Notes: generated by a model not told the origin, from the letters alone. A stretch of DNA of 64,000 bases from an uncultured Acidobacteriota bacterium (GCA_963777605.1 CAVZRV010000007.1:768001-832000), one strand, 5' to 3'; shown: positions 53,252-60,584, counted from the first letter of the stretch. Made by a program: numbers and translations.

Positions 53252-53959
53252 ATGGTTCTGATCTCAACTTTGATTCTGGCACTTTCAGCATTAGCGACTC
53301 CTCCCCCTTCCAGTTGTGAGGTCCTCCGGACCGGGGGGGCCATAAACGTGGACGGAGTGCTCAACGAAGCCTCCTGGAAGGCAGCCCAACCGCTTCACTT
53401 CGTCGACAGTGCCACCGGGCAGCCAAGCAACCTTAAGACCAGTGCCTGGGTCCTCTGGGACGACGAGTACCTCTACTTCGCCTTTGAAAGTTACGACGAG
53501 AACATTTGGGCCACGATGAAGAAGCGGGACGAGCACCTGTGGACCGAGGAAGTGGACGAAGTGTTCCTCCAGCCCGATCCCAGCCACCCGAACTACATCG
53601 AACTCGAGGTCAACCCCCTGGGCACCATGCTCGACATCTATCTGATCGATGTCCGGAAGCCCCTCCCTTATGAAAGCTGGAACCCTGCCGGGATCAAATG
53701 GGCAGTCAACGTCGAGGGGACAGTCGACGGCAAACCGGGAGACCGAAAATGGACCTGCGAAATCGCTTTTCCACTTGCCGATGCGGTCACCGCACCGCAC
53801 ATCCCACCCCAGGATGGCGACCGCTGGAAGATGAACCTCTACCGGGTTGAAAGCAAGCCGCAGCCGGCCGGGCTGGCCTGGTCACCGACGCTGAAAAGAG
53901 ATTTTCACGTGCCCCAGCGCTTCGGTGACATCATTTTTCGCAATCGAAAGGTGAACTAG
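53252..53959 (+). CDS. Secreted CBM9-like (DOMON-like) carbohydrate-binding protein
   Basis: Signal peptide, INVDGVLNEASW, LWDDEYLYFAF, EVNPLG, WKMNLYR, FHVPQRFG. Confidence 0.85.
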   Translation: MVLISTLILALSALATPPPSSCEVLRTGGAINVDGVLNEASWKAAQPLHFVDSATGQPSNLKTSAWVLWDDEYLYFAFESYDENIWATMKKRDEHLWTEEVDEVFLQPDPSHPNYIELEVNPLGTMLDIYLIDVRKPLPYESWNPAGIKWAVNVEGTVDGKPGDRKWTCEIAFPLADAVTAPHIPPQDGDRWKMNLYRVESKPQPAGLAWSPTLKRDFHVPQRFGDIIFRNRKVN

Positions 53960-53985
53960 TGGTCCGTTCCCGAAGTGACCACTAG
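53956..53985. repeat. 30-bp inverted repeat bounded by CTAG, carrying the stops of both convergent genes
   Basis: CTAGTGGTC-N12-GACCACTAG. Confidence 0.6.
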
Positions 53986-54491
53986 AGCGAAAGTCCAAGT
54001 CGGTTCAGCAGCTTGGGAGAGATGAGCCAGTTCAGTGTGCCGCAGCCCGGCCCGCAGTTCTCCCAACGATCAAGGGCGAGTTTGACCCAGGCGAGAGAGG
54101 AGGTGGGTAGTTTGAAGCTTCCGCCTCCGACTACCGCACTCAGAAAATCTTCCTGGCCAGGGTTGTGCCCGACCAGGATGACCCGGTCGAGGTCGTCCGG
54201 GAGCCTTCGGATGAATTCCTGGATGCCTTTTCGGTCGGCCAGGTAAAGCCGCTTCTCGAACTCGGACGGACACCCCCACTTGCCCGATTCCATGGCGAGC
54301 TCCAATGTATGCCGCGCGCGTTCGGCCGAACTGGAGTAGGCAGCCTCAGGGACTATTCCTGCCGCCGAGACAAACTTGCCCATCAGTCGCGCCGCTTCCA
54401 GACCCCGACTGGCCAGAGGCCGATCGTGGTCATCCTTGAGCGCACCTTTCCAGTCGGATTTCGCGTGTCTAAGAAGTCCCAATTCTTTCAA
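53982..54491 (-). CDS. sixA: SixA-type phosphohistidine phosphatase
   Basis: RHAKS, RPL..RG, SSAERA, VGHNP; GAGGAG RBS upstream of the TTG start. Confidence 0.88.
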   Translation of the reverse strand: MKELGLLRHAKSDWKGALKDDHDRPLASRGLEAARLMGKFVSAAGIVPEAAYSSSAERARHTLELAMESGKWGCPSEFEKRLYLADRKGIQEFIRRLPDDLDRVILVGHNPGQEDFLSAVVGGGSFKLPTSSLAWVKLALDRWENCGPGCGTLNWLISPKLLNRLGLSL

Positions 54492-54618
54492 AATGCGACT
54501 CTCCTCTCTGAATCTGAACCGAAAAACCAGGCCCCGTCTGCTAGACTATGAGCGTGTCAGCATTCGAGAACGCTGATTTTCCCGTTCCAAGTTCATCCAA
54601 CCGGAGGCTGCGACTGCC

Positions 54619-56769
54619 ATGCCGACCAAGAACCGGGCAAAAGAGGTGGCTGAAAACCACCGCAAGTCAAGCAGCCCTAATCTAAATCACCAAACCTATT
54701 ATTTCAATCGCGAGCTGAGCTGGTTGGAGTTCAACCGGCGGGTCCTTTCTGAGGCCCTGGACCCCAAGATTCCTCTCCTGGAACGAGTTAAGTTTCTCGC
54801 GATCTTTTTCAGCAACCTCGACGAGTTCTTCATGATCCGGGTCTCCGGGCTGAAACGGCAGTTGACGAGCGGAGCGCTGAAGCCCCCTCCCGACGGCCTG
54901 ACCCCGGCCCAGCAATTGAACCGGATTCGAGACGAGGTGCTCCCCCTGCTCGACACGGCGGAACGCTGCTGGCGCGAACAGTTGCAGCCGATGCTGTGCG
55001 AGCAAGGAATCCGCGTGGTGCCACACGCGTCACTGCGGAAGAACCAGATCCGACTCCTTCGAAGGCACTTCACTCGGGAGGTATTCCCAATCCTGACTCC
55101 CCTGGCTTTTGATCCGGGTCATCCCTTCCCCCACATATCGAGCCTCAGCGTCAATCTGGCCGTGATCGTCAAAGATCCGAAGCTCGGCAGACGGTTCGCG
55201 CGACTGAAGGTTCCCCACATCCTGCCTCGCCTGATTCGGGTTCCCAACGCCAAAGAGGAGGCTGACGGACAGAGAGAGGGGCTTGACGAAGCCGGCTCCA
55301 TCGAACTGGTCTGGCTCGAGGAACTGATTGCTGCCAATCTCGATCTGCTCTTTCCCGGGTTGGAGGTCGTCGCCGTACACCCGTTCCGGGTCACAAGAAA
55401 TGCCGACGTTGAGATCGAGGAAGACGAAGCGGCGGATCTCCTCGAGGCCGCCAAGGAGATGGTCGGACAGCGGCGCTTTGGATTCGCAATCCGACTTGAA
55501 GTCGATCCTCGCATGCCAAAAGAGTTCTTGAGCATCCTGGTAGGAAATCTTGACTTGGCATCCTATCAGATCTATCTCACCGAAGGTCCGGTCGGTCCGA
55601 CCGATCTCATGCAGTTGACCGGGCTCGACCGGCCCGATCTCAAAGATCCACCGTTTCAACCGGTTGTGCCCGCCCTACTGACGACCGAGAAGAACATCTT
55701 CTCGGTTATCCGCCGGCGGAATGTCCTTCTTTACCATCCCTACGACAGCTTCAGCCCGGTCGTTGATTTCATCCGGCAGGCCGCTCACGACCCGGACGTC
55801 CTGGCGATCAAGCAGACACTCTATCGGGTTGGTCCCAACTCGCCGATCGTTCGCGAGCTCAAAGAAGCCCGGGAAAACAACAAGCAGGTGGCCACACTCG
55901 TTGAACTTAAAGCTCGCTTTGATGAAGAGAACAACATCGAGTGGGCCAAGGAACTGGAAGATGTTGGGGTCCACGTAGTCTATGGGCTCCTCGGACTCAA
56001 GGTCCACTGCAAGATGTGCATGGTGGTGCGGAGGGAACGCGAAGGACTGGTCCGCTACGTCCATCTCGGAACCGGGAACTACAACCCGGTCACGGCCAGG
56101 ATCTACACTGATCTGGGTCTGTTCACGTGCGATCCGGAAATTGCTTCCGACGTGGCCGACCTGTTCAATGCCCTCACCGGGTATTCACGTCAAAGGAAGT
56201 ACCACAAGCTCCTGGTCGCTCCCGAGTTCATGCAGGAAGCGATGATCTCCAGGATTCACCGGGAGATTGAGACTCACAAGAAGCACGGCAACGGCCACCT
56301 GGCCTTCAAAATGAACGCCCTCGTGGACAAGTCCTGTATCCGGGCGCTGTACCAGGCATCGCAGGCCGGCGTCCGCGTAGACCTCCAGGTTCGCGGCATC
56401 TGTTGCCTGAAACCGGGCGTTCCCCGCGTGAGCGAAAACATCCGAGTCACATCAGTTGTGGGACGCTTCCTGGAGCACACTCGCATTTACTACTTCCACA
56501 ATGGAGGCAACGAGGAGATCCTCCTCGGCAGCGCCGACCTGATGCCCCGAAATTTGAAGGGCCGCGTGGAAGTTCTCTTTCCGCTCGAGGAAGCCACCAT
56601 CAAGCAGGCGCTCCGCGACGAAATCCTCCAGGTCCACCTGCGGGACAACCACAAGTGCTGGGAACTTGATCCCGACGGAACCTACCGCAAGATGTCACCC
56701 GGACCTTCCGAGGAGGGAGTTGACTCCCAGCAGCTTCGCATCGACCACCCGGGAAGCTGGCATGGCTAG
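54619..56769 (+). CDS. ppk1: Polyphosphate kinase 1
   Basis: NRELSWLEFN, NLDEFFMIRV, HPFPHI, HPYDSF, ELKARFDEE, KVHCK, GTGNYN, RFLEH, SADLMPRN. Confidence 0.98.
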   Translation: MPTKNRAKEVAENHRKSSSPNLNHQTYYFNRELSWLEFNRRVLSEALDPKIPLLERVKFLAIFFSNLDEFFMIRVSGLKRQLTSGALKPPPDGLTPAQQLNRIRDEVLPLLDTAERCWREQLQPMLCEQGIRVVPHASLRKNQIRLLRRHFTREVFPILTPLAFDPGHPFPHISSLSVNLAVIVKDPKLGRRFARLKVPHILPRLIRVPNAKEEADGQREGLDEAGSIELVWLEELIAANLDLLFPGLEVVAVHPFRVTRNADVEIEEDEAADLLEAAKEMVGQRRFGFAIRLEVDPRMPKEFLSILVGNLDLASYQIYLTEGPVGPTDLMQLTGLDRPDLKDPPFQPVVPALLTTEKNIFSVIRRRNVLLYHPYDSFSPVVDFIRQAAHDPDVLAIKQTLYRVGPNSPIVRELKEARENNKQVATLVELKARFDEENNIEWAKELEDVGVHVVYGLLGLKVHCKMCMVVRREREGLVRYVHLGTGNYNPVTARIYTDLGLFTCDPEIASDVADLFNALTGYSRQRKYHKLLVAPEFMQEAMISRIHREIETHKKHGNGHLAFKMNALVDKSCIRALYQASQAGVRVDLQVRGICCLKPGVPRVSENIRVTSVVGRFLEHTRIYYFHNGGNEEILLGSADLMPRNLKGRVEVLFPLEEATIKQALRDEILQVHLRDNHKCWELDPDGTYRKMSPGPSEEGVDSQQLRIDHPGSWHG

Positions 56770-56827
56770 TGTCCCGTCACGCATCATATGACGATTTCAG
56801 AGCCCCGGATGCGTGACAGGACACTAG
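56766..56827. mobile_element. 62-bp MITE-like element with IS630-like ends
   Basis: 20-bp terminal inverted repeats with one mismatch (CTAGTGTCCCGTCACGCATC / GATGCGTGACAGGACACTAG); 51/62 identical without gaps to 60683-60744. Confidence 0.75.
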
Positions 56828-57567
56828 CGGGCCTTCGACTGGATCTCCTTCCAGAGTGCCTCAAAGGCTTTTGAAGGCGGGCTCGAGGCCGCAAAAACGG
56901 GAAGCGGAGCCCGGTGGATGCCCATCTGTTCCACCTGGCTGGAGTAAGGGATCTTGCTCGTCAGGAATGGGAGCGGCCTGTCAGGAGGGTTGTCAACGGT
57001 TTCCCGATGCAGGGTCTTACGCCGGTCAACCATGCTGAAAAACGGCCATGCCTTCCCTGCGTTCAGGTTCTGTTTGTCCATGAAATCAGCAATCAGATCG
57101 AGCGACCTGAGGGAGAGAGGGGTCGGGATGGTGGGGATCACGACCAGGTCGACCGAGTGAAGAAGCGCCTCCGAGACGATTGAAAGACCCGGGGCGCAGT
57201 CGATGATGACGGTGTCATATTCGCGGCTCAACGTCTTCAGGATTCGCTGAATGCGTTTGAAGGCATCGTCTTTCTTGCTCAGCACCAGATCGAGCTTTCG
57301 GTAGGAGAAGTCGCCGGGAAGCAAATCAAACCCGGGAAAGTCGGTTCCGCGAATGTACTTGTCGAGGTCGGTCTTCTTCTTGACCAGCTGTTTGCCGCCA
57401 CCCGCGATCCGGGCCTGAATTCGGAGGTAGAAGGTAGCCGACGACTGCGGGTCCAGGTCCCACATCACGGTCCGGTTGCCCGCCGTAGAAGCCAGATAGG
57501 ACAGGTTGACCGCCGTTGCGGTCTTGCCCACGCCGCCCTTTATGCTGTATACCGCGATTGTCGCCAC
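56824..57567 (-). CDS. ParA/MinD-family ATPase (no ParB in the window)
   Basis: Deviant Walker A KGGVGKT, DLDPQSSAT, IIDCAPG; GTG start 10 nt after the CHAD stop with a GGGGAA RBS. Confidence 0.92.
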   Translation of the reverse strand: MATIAVYSIKGGVGKTATAVNLSYLASTAGNRTVMWDLDPQSSATFYLRIQARIAGGGKQLVKKKTDLDKYIRGTDFPGFDLLPGDFSYRKLDLVLSKKDDAFKRIQRILKTLSREYDTVIIDCAPGLSIVSEALLHSVDLVVIPTIPTPLSLRSLDLIADFMDKQNLNAGKAWPFFSMVDRRKTLHRETVDNPPDRPLPFLTSKIPYSSQVEQMGIHRAPLPVFAASSPPSKAFEALWKEIQSKAR

Positions 57568-57577
57568 CTTGTTCCCC

Positions 57578-59140
57578 CTAGTCGACGCGATTCCGCCGTC
57601 GCGTAAGCTCCTTCTTGAGTACCTTCTTCCTCGATCGGTTCGCGAACAGGTTGAATCTGTCGCTGAAGTACCGTCGCAGCGCCTGTTGACTCGTTTCCAT
57701 CTGCTCGAGGAGACGCCCCGCAACGAGGAAAGTCCGGGCGGGGATTTCCTTTTCAGCCCAGGCCTCATCGACGTAGGTCTTCAGGTTCTGGTACTGGACG
57801 TGACAGTCATTGAAGTCCCCCAGAATGTCCTGGAGTCCTTTCAAGTCGCTGATCAACCCACTCATGAGTGGCCGCGGGTACAGGCTCTTGAAGAACTCGA
57901 GCAGATACCGCAGCTTCTTGCAGTCGATTCGCAGCTGGTGAAGCAGCCGGGGCTCCGCCGATGCGCTCAGTCCGGCGCCCTCCCGGAGGATCCTTCTATA
58001 GATCTTCCAGATCTTCGGCGATGCCAGCTCGTAGACCGTCTCCCGGCCTCGATCGGCGCGAAACGATTCCTCCCGGTGCAACGCATTGTCCCAGTCCGAG
58101 ACAAGTTCCCGGTAGCGGGCGCCGCGAATGAGTGCCCCCAGCCGTTCCCCTTCCACCTGCTGCCGGTGTCGCAGCAGTTGGATCAGTGGCGCCAGATCTT
58201 CGGCTTCCTCGACAACGCGCCGTGCCTTCAACTGCTCCAGCTTGATCAGGAAGACATCCAGGTCTCGCTTCTTACCCGTTGACTGACCCAACCACCGAAA
58301 CTCTTCATTGAAGCTTTCCAGGAGCTGTGGGTCGAGGTGCTCTTTGGACCTACTCAAGAGCGCCCGGGTTCGTCGCACGGAAACTCGAAAATCATGAAGG
58401 AATTCCGGGTCCAGCTCCGAACAGACTCCCGCTTCGTTGATCCGCATGGTGCCGAGGAGCTGCAGGAAGAGCAACCTCAACGCTGCCGCAGCGGGCATTG
58501 CCGGCTCCAGCTGAAAGTTGAGCTTCGAGGAGTAGTCAAGCGGGGTTTCCCCCGAAACGTACAGCGCCGCCTCGAAAAATGGCGCCCGAACGGGTTCGCC
58601 AGAGAGGTCTCCGACCAGATCGGTCAATTCCCGGTGCACCGCTTCGAAACCCCGAACCGGGAGCACGCGCACCCACTGCGGCAACGCCCTCGACTTCTTG
58701 TTCCGGAACGTTGCCCGAACTCTTCCCTCCAGCAGGAGCAGAATGGCGGTGACCTTCTCTCGTTCATCCAGGATACGCACTTCCCAACCCGAGTAGTTCA
58801 AGGTCAGCCGGTGAAGCAGGCGACGCACACCCACCGCGTTCTCAATACGCTTGCTGAGTGGGGATGGCTCAAGATCCGAGCAGAACGAGGGGGGACGCGC
58901 CTGACTCACGGATGCAACGGTCTCGCCTCCGAGGCGGGCCAGGGAAAGCACCGCCCCAAGCTGAGAAGACTCCCACCTCAGGGCAAGCCCGTTGGAAAAA
59001 AGCCCCCAGTCGAAACTGTCCAGGTAGAGTTGGCGGCGCTCCGGAATGTGCGTGACCGCCACTTTGAACGATTGGGCGACGTGCGCAATCAGGCTTTCGG
59101 GATCTCTATCGATACTGAAAAGTCGTTCCTGGAAACTCAT
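57578..59140 (-). CDS. CHAD-domain polyphosphate-binding protein with a degenerate N-terminal CYTH-like domain
   Basis: LHDFRVSVRRTRALL, RDLDVF, LHQLRIDCKKLRYLLEFF, LQDILGDFND; N-terminal YLDSFDWGL...LALR. Confidence 0.9.
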   Translation of the reverse strand: MSFQERLFSIDRDPESLIAHVAQSFKVAVTHIPERRQLYLDSFDWGLFSNGLALRWESSQLGAVLSLARLGGETVASVSQARPPSFCSDLEPSPLSKRIENAVGVRRLLHRLTLNYSGWEVRILDEREKVTAILLLLEGRVRATFRNKKSRALPQWVRVLPVRGFEAVHRELTDLVGDLSGEPVRAPFFEAALYVSGETPLDYSSKLNFQLEPAMPAAAALRLLFLQLLGTMRINEAGVCSELDPEFLHDFRVSVRRTRALLSRSKEHLDPQLLESFNEEFRWLGQSTGKKRDLDVFLIKLEQLKARRVVEEAEDLAPLIQLLRHRQQVEGERLGALIRGARYRELVSDWDNALHREESFRADRGRETVYELASPKIWKIYRRILREGAGLSASAEPRLLHQLRIDCKKLRYLLEFFKSLYPRPLMSGLISDLKGLQDILGDFNDCHVQYQNLKTYVDEAWAEKEIPARTFLVAGRLLEQMETSQQALRRYFSDRFNLFANRSRKKVLKKELTRRRNRVD

Positions 59141-59405
59141 GAAGTCAGAAAGGATGACAGTTCATTCTCTCAAATGGCATTCAGCCTATACAGAACCTTG
59201 CCCCGTGTAAAGGTAACACCTTCGGGTCTACGGGCGGCGCCCTGGCCCTGATTACGCGGCAGTGACCGCAACTCAACCCGAAAATCCGGAATGTGATTCC
59301 ATTCCGCCGGTAATTGCCTTTCGAGCAGTGCGGAATTAGTATCAGACAGAATTCACCGACTCAGTAAATCAACAAGCCGATTCGATAAGGGAAAGGAGAG
59401 CTGAA

Positions 59406-60584
59406 ATGGCTGATCGCACACTGAACGTTGGACTGATTGGCGGTGGGGCGGGTGCCTTCATCGTTCATCCCCATCAGCGGGCAATCCACATGGACGGAAC
59501 ACGCAGAGTCGTCTGCGGGGCCCTTCACCCGGATCCGGAGACCGCCCTCCGGGAAGCAGACGCCTGGCCCTACGCGATCCGAGGATATCGCAGTTACTCG
59601 GAAATGATTGAGAAGGAGTCCCGGTTGCCCGAAGGGGAACGGATGGATTATGTCCTCATCGTGACCCCCAATCACGTCCACCACGGCCCCGCGGTCGAAT
59701 CCCTGAACGCCGGCTTCCCGGTCTTCTGTGAGAAACCACTGACCTTGACTCTGGACGAGTCGGACGACCTGGTCCGGATCGTGAACGAGCGGAAGATCCC
59801 TTTCTGTGTCGCTCACACCTACCTGGGACACTGGACCTCCCGGCTCTCTCGTCACATCATCCGCTCAGGTTTGCTCGGCAAAGTGCGTTGGGTGGACGCA
59901 CATTACATTCAGGGATGGCTGGCCAGTCGCGCGGAAGACAAGGGCGTAGTCCAGGCGGAGTGGCGAGTTGACCCGGCCCGCGCGGGCCTCAGTGGCTGCG
60001 GTGGCGATATCGGGACTCATGCCCTGATGCAGCTACGCTATGTGACGGGACTCGAGGTAACCCGAATTCAGGCCTTTCTGGAGAAGTTCGTGGCGGGTCG
60101 AAGGCTGGACGACCACTTCACCGCTTACGGCATTCTCAGCAACGGTGGGAAAGCCCTTATTCGCTGCTCCCAGATCAGCATTGGGCACAAGAACGACTGC
60201 GGTATCGAGGTCATTTGCGAGAAAGGAACCCTGGTCTGGAACCAGGAAGAAGCGGAATGCCTTCGGATCCATCTTCCCGGTCAACCCGATCGCGTCTACT
60301 GGCGGGGTGAGGTCCAGGCCAACGACGGATTCCTCGGCGACGTTCCGGCCAGTCTCCTCGCGGAACCCACCGTGCCTTCCGGGCACCCCGAAGGGTTCCA
60401 CGACGCCTTCGCCCGGTTGCACCGCTGTTTTGAAACGGACGTCAGGGCGTACCTCAAGAGGACCTTCTCGGGACAGGACGGGTCCCAATACGCGACAGTT
60501 GAAGACGGTCGCAAGGGCATCGCATTCCTAGTCGCTGCGGTCGAAAGCAACAACCAGGATCACTGCTGGGTAGACGTCCCCTAA
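59406..60584 (+). CDS. Gfo/Idh/MocA oxidoreductase
   Basis: GLIGGGAGAFI, VTPNHVH, CEKP, YIQGWL, GDIGTHA, PSGHPEG. Confidence 0.92.
   Translation: MADRTLNVGLIGGGAGAFIVHPHQRAIHMDGTRRVVCGALHPDPETALREADAWPYAIRGYRSYSEMIEKESRLPEGERMDYVLIVTPNHVHHGPAVESLNAGFPVFCEKPLTLTLDESDDLVRIVNERKIPFCVAHTYLGHWTSRLSRHIIRSGLLGKVRWVDAHYIQGWLASRAEDKGVVQAEWRVDPARAGLSGCGGDIGTHALMQLRYVTGLEVTRIQAFLEKFVAGRRLDDHFTAYGILSNGGKALIRCSQISIGHKNDCGIEVICEKGTLVWNQEEAECLRIHLPGQPDRVYWRGEVQANDGFLGDVPASLLAEPTVPSGHPEGFHDAFARLHRCFETDVRAYLKRTFSGQDGSQYATVEDGRKGIAFLVAAVESNNQDHCWVDVP

Follow-up and report, generated by a model that had tools for sequence, protein, structure and literature searches.

The window analysed here is a stretch of 64,000 nt from an uncultured Acidobacteriota bacterium (contig interval 768001-832000), and it carries a gene for a CHAD domain protein followed by a gene for a ParA ATPase. 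This CHAD-ParA pair is real and strongly conserved and, to judge by its sequence, it is a strong candidate for machinery that organises polyphosphate (polyP) storage granules, bodies which many bacteria space regularly and pass on to their daughter cells. The best explanation of the two genes is a two-gene operon encoding a dedicated polyP-granule module, and we lean modestly towards the reading that this module would be a ParA/adaptor system that places or partitions the granules. CHAD domains bind polyP and mark granules according to PMC6537752 and to Tumlirsch and Jendrossek (2017) as cited therein. The first-pass annotation of this DNA had proposed that the CHAD protein is the adaptor through which ParA spaces polyP granules, and had counted the neighbouring ppk1 and sixA genes in the system. 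The linkage of CHAD to ParA, the dedicated partner protein and the domain fusions described below speak for the adaptor proposal, whereas ppk1 and the sixA-like gene dropped out as general parts.

The CHAD-ParA gene pair

Genes were placed by an open reading frame (ORF) list and by translations of the window, and coordinates are those of the whole window unless a contig position is named. Order, strands and coordinates of the CHAD, ParA, ppk1 and sixA-like genes were as first annotated. The pair comprises the following features.

57578-59140, minus strand: gene for the TTM-like/CHAD protein, 520 aa, a proposed polyphosphate-granule adaptor (Pfam CHAD, AlphaFold model, Foldseek)
58526-59140, minus strand: part of the CHAD gene coding for the TTM/CYTH-like domain, about residues 1-205 (model, Foldseek)
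57568-57577, minus strand: spacer of 10 nt from the CHAD stop to the ParA GTG start (direct sequence reading)
56824-57567, minus strand: gene for the ParA/MinD-family ATPase, 247 aa, GTG start, of a distinct CHAD-linked family
57364-57426, minus strand: part of the ParA gene coding for the basic loop, residues 48-68 (low model confidence, charge comparison)

The CHAD gene ends in TAG, and the 10-nt spacer GGGGAACAAG, which contains a Shine-Dalgarno-like GGGGA, leads to the GTG start of ParA. The source genome (6.7 Mb, 53 contigs) has only one CHAD gene, that of the window.

Linkage of CHAD and ParA across genomes

A profile of 40 ParA homologues, run against one genome per species, recovered 581 relatives, the best 80 of which were kept as loci. 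These 80 loci span Gammaproteobacteria, Acidobacteriota, Actinomycetota, Gemmatimonadota, Planctomycetota, Bacteroidota, Zetaproteobacteria and others, and contigs carrying ParA relatives reach megabases. The same CHAD family was found directly upstream of ParA, on the same strand, in 70 of the best 80 loci, 60 of them recognised by Pfam on the upstream ORF and 10, where shadow ORFs are present, by a profile of the upstream family on six-frame ORFs. CHAD is nearby in three further loci (4.3 kb downstream in one, divergent in two), and it was not found in the other seven within the stretch examined. The start of ParA and the stop of CHAD overlap in 58 of the 70 pairs; the overlap measures 4 nt in 46 pairs and 1, 13 or 29 nt in the other 12. 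The pairing exceeds chance.

Because the list of 80 is biased to close relatives, even genome samples were added from the window's own phylum (taken to be Acidobacteriota, the best PPK1 matches being acidobacterial), from the gammaproteobacterial class and from Actinomycetota.

Acidobacteriota (own phylum): 201 genomes; 12 carriers of the ParA family; 10 with ParA adjacent to CHAD; 12 with CHAD anywhere
Gammaproteobacterial class: 401 genomes; 64 carriers; 45 adjacent to CHAD; 57 with CHAD anywhere
Actinomycetota: 301 genomes; 18 carriers; 8 adjacent to CHAD; 18 with CHAD anywhere
All three samples: 903 genomes; 94 carriers; 63 adjacent to CHAD; 87 with CHAD anywhere

The Acidobacteriota tallies include three unpublished genomes, all of them non-carriers. 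Two gammaproteobacterial carriers (G346 and G513) are also unpublished; without them ParA is adjacent to CHAD in 45 of 62 carriers, and CHAD occurs anywhere in 55 of 62. The ParA family is sharply delimited: in the 201 Acidobacteriota genomes, no match falls between the 12 carriers, at 292 bits or more, and the next best, at 141. CHAD has a base rate of 110 in these 201 genomes, against 12 in the 12 ParA-family carriers. The 64 gammaproteobacterial carriers hold 66 hits, and ParA is adjacent to CHAD in 36 of 38 hits at 320 bits or more and in 6 of 15 between 280 and 320 bits.

In the two unlinked Acidobacteriota carriers, the genes lie 1.2 Mb apart in one and on different contigs in the other. 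The former genome (G093, the same record as locus L041) encodes a partner-type CHAD protein, with 549 bits against a like profile of the partner family, and a ParA. As the two genes stand at 2.64 Mb and 3.86 Mb, both can be retained without being linked.

The CHAD partner protein

The protein encoded upstream of ParA matches Pfam CHAD (PF05235) at residues 227-451 (4e-51; 174.6 bits, cut-off 25.6). In its AlphaFold model, with a predicted local distance difference test (pLDDT) score of 92.9, about residues 1-205 form an N-terminal beta domain of the TTM/CYTH-like kind, and about residues 217-520 form the C-terminal helical bundle of CHAD. The CHAD domain had been recognised in the first-pass annotation, which missed the N-terminal domain. 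In Foldseek comparisons, the CHAD part matched the Chlorobaculum tepidum CHAD protein without and with polyP (6qv7 and 6qva; E 1.6e-14, TMt 0.89), and the whole protein matched Escherichia coli YgiF (5a60). The N-terminal domain, beta-rich in the model, matched the TTM/CYTH structures 6yp4, 2jmu, 7ns8, 5a5y and others (E 3.5e-6 to 1e-3). Pfam CYTH (PF01928) was not detected in the window's CHAD protein, and the ExExK motif was found within the first 80 residues of none of 45 partner-family proteins. From this combination of fold match, missing CYTH detection and missing motif, the N-terminal domain is called TTM-like and is probably non-catalytic.

These observations bear on a quite different function. 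For a similar gene cluster of CYTH-CHAD, parA, ppk and folD in Acidithiobacillus, it has been proposed that the CYTH-CHAD protein is a polyP-regulated class IV adenylate cyclase or triphosphatase (PMC6416229), and ParA would then link its signal to division or chromosome partitioning. The TTM/CYTH fold of the N-terminal domain agrees with such a role; the failure to detect Pfam CYTH and the lack of ExExK in all 45 proteins speak against it, as does the separate parAB operon of the genome (see below). It would also leave unexplained why a dedicated CHAD subfamily is translationally coupled to a dedicated ParA family, and we hold it to be very improbable.

Many Arg, Lys and His residues of the CHAD domain are conserved alike in proteins paired with ParA and in unpaired ones, and the core residues common with unpaired TTM-CHAD proteins are H249, R252, R256, R257, R259, R292, H401, R404, K408 and R411. 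Other residues are specific to the partner subfamily and occur in both domains, including F43, W45, K129 and Y165 in the TTM-like part. Against the family profile, the CHAD proteins paired with ParA reach 329-608 bits, and TTM-CHAD proteins from five genomes without ParA score 213-272 bits against the like profile of the partner family. By these sequence comparisons the partner of ParA is a dedicated and distinct CHAD subfamily.

The ParA ATPase

The 247-aa protein matches Pfam AAA_31 (3e-29) and also CbiA, and the motifs KGGVGKT, DLDPQ, DCAPG and SMVDRRKTLH that had been read from the DNA are present in its translation. In an alignment of 40 homologues, residues K10, G11, G12, V13, G14, K15 and T16 of the deviant Walker A motif (SIKGGVGKT) are invariant, as are the switch aspartates D37 and D39 (WDLDPQ) and the Walker B residue D123 (VIIDCAPG). 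The best Foldseek matches of the model (pLDDT 85.3) are Soj/ParA proteins, with a template-modelling (TM) score of about 0.78, followed by MinD, FlhG, McdA and ParF. The closest solved structures are 9a6n, 8ray, 2bej, 1wcv and 6iub, and identity to solved ParAs is 21-25%. By sequence and model, the protein is a ParA/MinD-family deviant Walker A ATPase with an intact site and a Soj-like fold.

No NCBIfam equivalog was reached by this ParA; the best was ParA_partition, with 80.8 bits against a cut-off of 180, and the MinD model TIGR01968 gave only 40 bits against a cut-off of 212.9. In the model no further helix follows the last core one (residues 230-246 of 247), in keeping with the first-pass observation that a MinD-type C-terminal amphipathic helix is absent.

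The family has a basic loop of its own at residues 48-68, with the consensus R-I-K-x-K-V-K-G-G-G-K-K-L. The loop is predicted to be disordered, as pLDDT falls below 50 at residues 54-65. Its mean net charge is +5.9 in 125 CHAD-linked members and +3.2 in 27 unlinked members, against -2.4 in five generic ParAs; for the whole protein the mean is +7.2 in the family against +0.8 in the five generic ParAs. R183, within the SMVDRRKTLH patch, is invariant in the 40 homologues, and in an alignment with the ParA structure 8ray it falls on the Arg of the D-x-R motif. It is probably the counterpart of the DNA-binding Arg189 of Soj.

The source genome yielded six ParA-like matches; none of the five besides the window's ParA exceeds 34% identity to it. 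Its two ParB_N matches, at contig positions 708156 and 932583, both fall outside 768001-832000, and the window thus holds no ParB gene, as had been noted. The stronger of the two adjoins another ParA-like gene about 107 kb away, so that a canonical parAB operon exists separately in the genome. No parB or parG-type gene adjoins the window's ParA, and no small ORF flanks the pair. On the 3' side of ParA there is no small gene and ParA runs into the convergent ppk1; on the 5' side of the CHAD gene, the interval 59141-59405 contains no credible small ORF and thus no ParG-like gene.

This context makes it hardly credible that the protein is an ordinary plasmid or chromosome partition ParA that lies by chance beside CHAD and whose ParB or centromere partner was lost or escaped recognition. 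Its fold and motifs are those of small partition ParAs, and its best sub-threshold NCBIfam match is of that kind. Against this stand the pairing in 70 of the best 80 loci over many phyla, often with overlapping genes and on contigs of up to megabases, the lack of a small gene 3' of ParA or 5' of CHAD, and the canonical parAB found elsewhere.

Phylogeny of the ParA family

A maximum-likelihood tree was built from 157 rows: the window, the 80 loci, 10 Acidobacteriota carriers, 61 gammaproteobacterial hits and five generic ParAs. Two duplicates, two unpublished genomes and two partial hits were left out. The ParA family splits from the five generic ParAs with an SH-aLRT support of 100. The window's ParA belongs to a core clade (122 rows, support 84) in which 117 rows have CHAD upstream, one has it nearby and four are without. 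When linkage to CHAD was scored as a label on the tree, it required 9 changes, against a mean of 31.8 for shuffled labels, and none of 500 shuffles gave a number as low. Unlinked ParA genes thus cluster in particular clades.

Fusions and co-folding

With an E limit of 1e-40, a search for longer relatives of ParA returned 240 proteins, and 120 of these were listed. In 8 of the 120 listed, CHAD precedes ParA in one chain, and two of the 8 are full length (762 and 765 aa). These rare CHAD-ParA fusions could be assembly frameshifts over overlapping genes. CYTH detectable by Pfam follows ParA in 16 of the 120 listed, and a homologous CYTH-like C-terminal region, found by a single-pass search with the CYTH part, follows it in 99 of the 120. 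Assembly frameshifts would not account for so many ParA-CYTH-like forms. An S6PP/HAD phosphatase is fused to ParA in seven of the 120 listed (P0172, P0213, P0219, P0221, P0223, P0224 and P0231). When one ParA-CYTH-like fusion (P0184) was used as a query against the 301 Actinomycetota genomes, all 18 matches covered the ParA part only. The fusions indicate that ParA, TTM-like and CHAD domains travel together in several arrangements, and they suggest that it is the TTM-like domain with which ParA works.

Three further arrangements were seen in passing. In one locus (L031:5086-6828) a ParA-CYTH gene follows a TTM-like/CHAD gene, one cluster of ParA-S6PP/HAD fusions has 28 members, and a solute-binding domain (SBP_bac_3) is fused to ParA in four of the 120 listed proteins (P0194, P0208, P0220 and P0222).

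The fusions also lend some colour to a possible, if doubtful, alternative, in which ParA would be an ATP-driven switch on the granule itself. It would bind polyP by its basic loop and, acting with the TTM-like/CHAD protein, control nucleation, size, fusion or the access of enzymes, namely PPK, PPX, and TTM or HAD phosphatases. ParA fused to CYTH-like regions (99 of 120 listed) and to S6PP/HAD phosphatases (7 of 120 listed) would suit such a switch, as would the recurrence of polyP enzymes and phosphate-regulon genes near the pair. The disordered basic loop is specific to the family and most basic in its CHAD-linked members, polyP is a polyanion like DNA, and the loss of ExExK from the TTM-like domain is what would be expected of a binding or regulatory module. 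On the other side, the closest structural matches of this ParA are the DNA-binding Soj/ParA proteins, and polyP binding by any ParA has no direct precedent. To our knowledge, all characterised ParA/MinD ATPases of the Soj-like fold act by spatial patterning on a surface, which also counts against a switch on the granule.

A co-fold of a ParA dimer with the CHAD protein, which the first-pass annotation had suggested, passed, but weakly. With two copies of ParA and CHAD residues 21-520, the score was 0.49 (runs 0.49, 0.47 and 0.50), against 0.00 for the best of three controls, and the verdict was 'weak support'; the use of our own alignments and of three chains places this score outside the calibration. 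The runs agreed in at least 80% of contacts, and the pLDDT of the partner was at least 76. In the calibration, 116 of 157 solved complexes reached the mark, as did 2 of 215 mismatched pairs; only 18 of the 157 solved complexes, and both of the mismatches that passed, had a passing score of 0.60 or less. The co-fold makes only a small addition to the case for a ParA-CHAD complex.

Neighbouring genes

The surroundings of the pair include the following features.

56765-56828, no strand: inverted repeat over the stop codons of ppk1 and ParA (repeat search)
54619-56769, plus strand: ppk1, polyphosphate kinase 1, 716 aa (Pfam and NCBIfam)
53982-54491, minus strand: gene for a SixA-like histidine phosphatase, 169 aa, divergent from ppk1 (His_Phos_1)
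59141-59405, no strand: intergenic region of 265 nt 5' of the CHAD gene, presumed to hold the promoter of the CHAD-ParA operon

The product of ppk1 has all four PPK1 Pfam domains (PP_kinase_N, middle, C_1 and C) and is well above the cut-offs of NF003921 (988 bits, cut-off 701) and TIGR03705 (864 bits, cut-off 466). Its stop is separated by 54 nt from that of the convergent ParA gene, and its start by 127 nt from that of the divergent sixA-like gene. The phosphatase belongs to branch 1 of the histidine phosphatase superfamily (His_Phos_1, 3e-9). The first-pass name sixA was right as to a divergent histidine phosphatase gene, but the SixA equivalog TIGR00249 was not reached (42.2 bits, cut-off 74.5), and 'SixA-like' is therefore the safe name. 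PPK1 works via a phosphohistidine intermediate, so the SixA-like phosphatase might act on it.

The inverted repeat has 21-nt arms, 95% complementary, and a 22-nt loop, and its sequence would possibly allow it to serve as a two-way terminator of ppk1 and ParA. It lacks a following T-run and was missed in the terminator scan. In that scan of 53800-59600, promoter-like matches (2, mean of shuffles 1.2) and terminator-like matches (5, mean 5.5) did not exceed shuffled sequences. The intergenic region 59141-59405, which the CHAD gene shares with a divergent GFO/IDH oxidoreductase gene, likewise gave no promoter-like match above shuffles. The outer genes are unrelated to phosphate (GFO/IDH oxidoreductases, CBM9, M23 peptidase, PfkB, a TPR protein and others), and no carboxysome genes were seen in the annotated part of the window (47.8-64 kb).

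Phosphate-related genes recur near the pair in the best 80 loci, those for SixA-like and PPK1 proteins being counted within 6 kb of it.

SixA-like: 12 of 80 loci
PPK1: 8 of 80 loci
PhoB-type regulator: 5 of 80 loci
PPX: 4 of 80 loci
PhoR: 4 of 80 loci
PPK2: 3 of 80 loci
Na/Pi-PhoU: 3 of 80 loci

At least one of PPK1, PPK2 and PPX lies within 6 kb in at least 11 of the 80 loci. By our arithmetic, chance would place a single-copy gene such as that for PPK1 in roughly 0.2 loci, against the 8 observed. In the 12 loci with a SixA-like histidine phosphatase, its gene is near the CHAD-ParA pair or near ppk1. The arrangement of ppk1 and the sixA-like gene in the window recurs exactly in a Thermoanaerobaculia locus (L027). 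A larger conserved operon with ppk1 or sixA was considered and rejected, as no family besides CHAD clusters in more than 7 of the 80 loci. Thus, where the first-pass annotation had suggested counting how often this ParA clade adjoins CHAD, ppk, ppx or sixA genes, enrichment was found beside CHAD (70 of 80 loci; 63 of 94 carriers), but ppk1 (8 of 80) and the SixA-like gene (12 of 80) are not general companions. Their linkage to the pair is local.

Proposed function

In the mechanism that we propose, the 520-aa protein would bind the granule surface via its CHAD domain and serve as the cargo adaptor, and the 247-aa ParA would bind ATP and dimerise. The strongly basic surface of ATP-bound ParA dimers would hold them on a polyanionic matrix, for which the nucleoid is the likeliest candidate. 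By stimulating ATP hydrolysis, possibly through its TTM-like domain, the adaptor would release ParA locally. The resulting ParA gradient would keep granules apart, space them on the nucleoid and share them between daughter cells, as McdA/McdB does for carboxysomes. We infer the binding of the two proteins to each other, the identity of the matrix, the stimulation of the ATPase and the effect on granule position.

Several points weigh against this proposal. The evidence gathered for it is of sequence, genomic context and structural models. That this ParA would bind DNA is suggested by its charge and a single aligned arginine, and the co-fold passed weakly and returned no interface. The fusions to CYTH-like and HAD domains hint at a role in polyP chemistry rather than in position alone. 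ParA is away from CHAD in 31 of the 94 carrier genomes of the even samples, and a sister clade of 24 rows in the tree (support 86) has only five with CHAD upstream. No CHAD match was found in seven gammaproteobacterial carrier genomes (G256, G299, G431, G458, G486, G503 and G604). Ten Actinomycetota carriers are without CHAD within 1.5 kb upstream (L169-L174, L176, L178, L179 and L181), and in the four such loci tested by Pfam, ParA stands directly behind a class-V aminotransferase gene instead. Moreover, the pair is present in only 10 of the 110 CHAD-bearing genomes of the Acidobacteriota sample; ParA is an accessory, absent from most CHAD carriers. Finally, PMC13556221 reports that Synechococcus elongatus spaces its polyP granules independently of McdA, its only ParA-family ATPase, and CHAD-ParA is therefore not a general mechanism of granule spacing. 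With most CHAD carriers lacking ParA and about one third of ParA carriers unlinked in the even samples, it cannot be universal.

The ParAs of the seven CHAD-less gammaproteobacterial genomes, whose completeness is not given, are those of the lower-scoring sister clade, and may serve another cargo. In the ten Actinomycetota genomes CHAD is on another contig, and in L178 the class-V aminotransferase gene and ParA overlap by 4 nt. Long open frames 5' of ParA in eight Actinomycetota loci gave no Pfam domain besides ParA and were dismissed as chance frames in GC-rich DNA; the true upstream gene in these loci is the class-V aminotransferase gene.

The attachment of ParA to DNA could also be replaced within a three-domain machine of ParA, TTM-like and CHAD parts. 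Here the surface on which ParA acts would be polyP rather than DNA, and hydrolysis would divide, space or size the condensate. We hold this version to be unlikely; if true, it would be the first ParA-type system with a matrix or cargo that is not nucleic acid, membrane or a protein shell.

Comparison with known systems

The proposed ParA/adaptor system for polyP granules is closest in logic to McdA/McdB. In both, a small ParA-type ATPase gene lies beside the gene of a cargo adaptor (here a proposed one) for a non-DNA cytoplasmic body on the nucleoid, and the expected logic of ATP-bound ParA on a matrix with adaptor-stimulated release is the same; McdA (6nop) is among the fold matches of the window's ParA. 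They differ in that the adaptor here is a folded TTM-like/CHAD protein unrelated to McdB and the proposed cargo is an inorganic polymer granule. The window's ParA also keeps the signature lysine K10, adds the basic loop and has no McdB-type partner. McdAB itself does not position polyP granules, and the distribution of the granules is ascribed to a 'yet-to-be-discovered' mechanism in the same August 2026 paper (PMC13556221).

With Soj/ParA-ParB systems, the window's ParA shares its best structural matches, the deviant Walker A motif, the switch aspartates, Walker B and the invariant Arg of D-x-R. Unlike them, it has no adjoining ParB, scores 80.8 bits against the 180 of ParA_partition and is only 21-25% identical to solved ParAs. 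The partner has the two-domain architecture of YgiF and other TTM-CHAD proteins (phosins), with a full-length fold match to 5a60 and the CHAD core residues kept. The E. coli YgiF protein is a triphosphatase, as the title of 5a60 also states, whereas the ParA-linked proteins form a subfamily of their own without the ExExK signature.

Even spacing of polyP granules is aided in Pseudomonas aeruginosa by AlgP, a histone H1-like protein (PMC9239181). AlgP concerns the same task of spacing these granules over the nucleoid, but it is not an ATPase and belongs to an unrelated sequence class, and no ParA is named in the accessible part of that paper. In the accessible part of a 2025 review of polyP and chromatin, ParA/MinD proteins appear only for carboxysomes and plasmids (PMC11894788).

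The nearest precedent in print is the folD-ppk-parA-CHAD cluster of Acidithiobacillus, in which a CYTH-CHAD gene, parA and ppk1 are likewise neighbours (PMC10892726 and PMC6416229). In the accessible parts of these papers, ParA is labelled a plasmid or chromosome partition protein and the cluster is read in terms of copper resistance or cyclic AMP, with no granule role. The legend of figure 1 in PMC10892726 places PepN in that cluster; here, an M1 aminopeptidase (PepN-like) gene lies 5' of the CHAD gene in 7 of the 80 loci, for example in L008, L013, L014 and L025 (Sedimenticola and relatives). The first-pass annotation knew of no characterised ParA-CHAD system, and a literature search, which covered few subscription journals, found none; the Acidithiobacillus gene cluster was the only relevant report.

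Implications

The CHAD-ParA pair is widespread and well defined, and it joins an ATPase of the positioning type to the one known polyP-granule-binding domain. It thereby offers a candidate that can be deleted and purified, and culturable species among the loci include Sedimenticola selenatireducens, Thalassobaculum litoreum DSM 18839 and Prauserella muralis DSM 45305. Compared with known ParA/adaptor systems, both the adaptor and the proposed cargo are new. If the proposal is true, an inorganic storage polymer would join the list of ParA cargos, and the pair may provide a handle on granule number and size in polyP-accumulating organisms.

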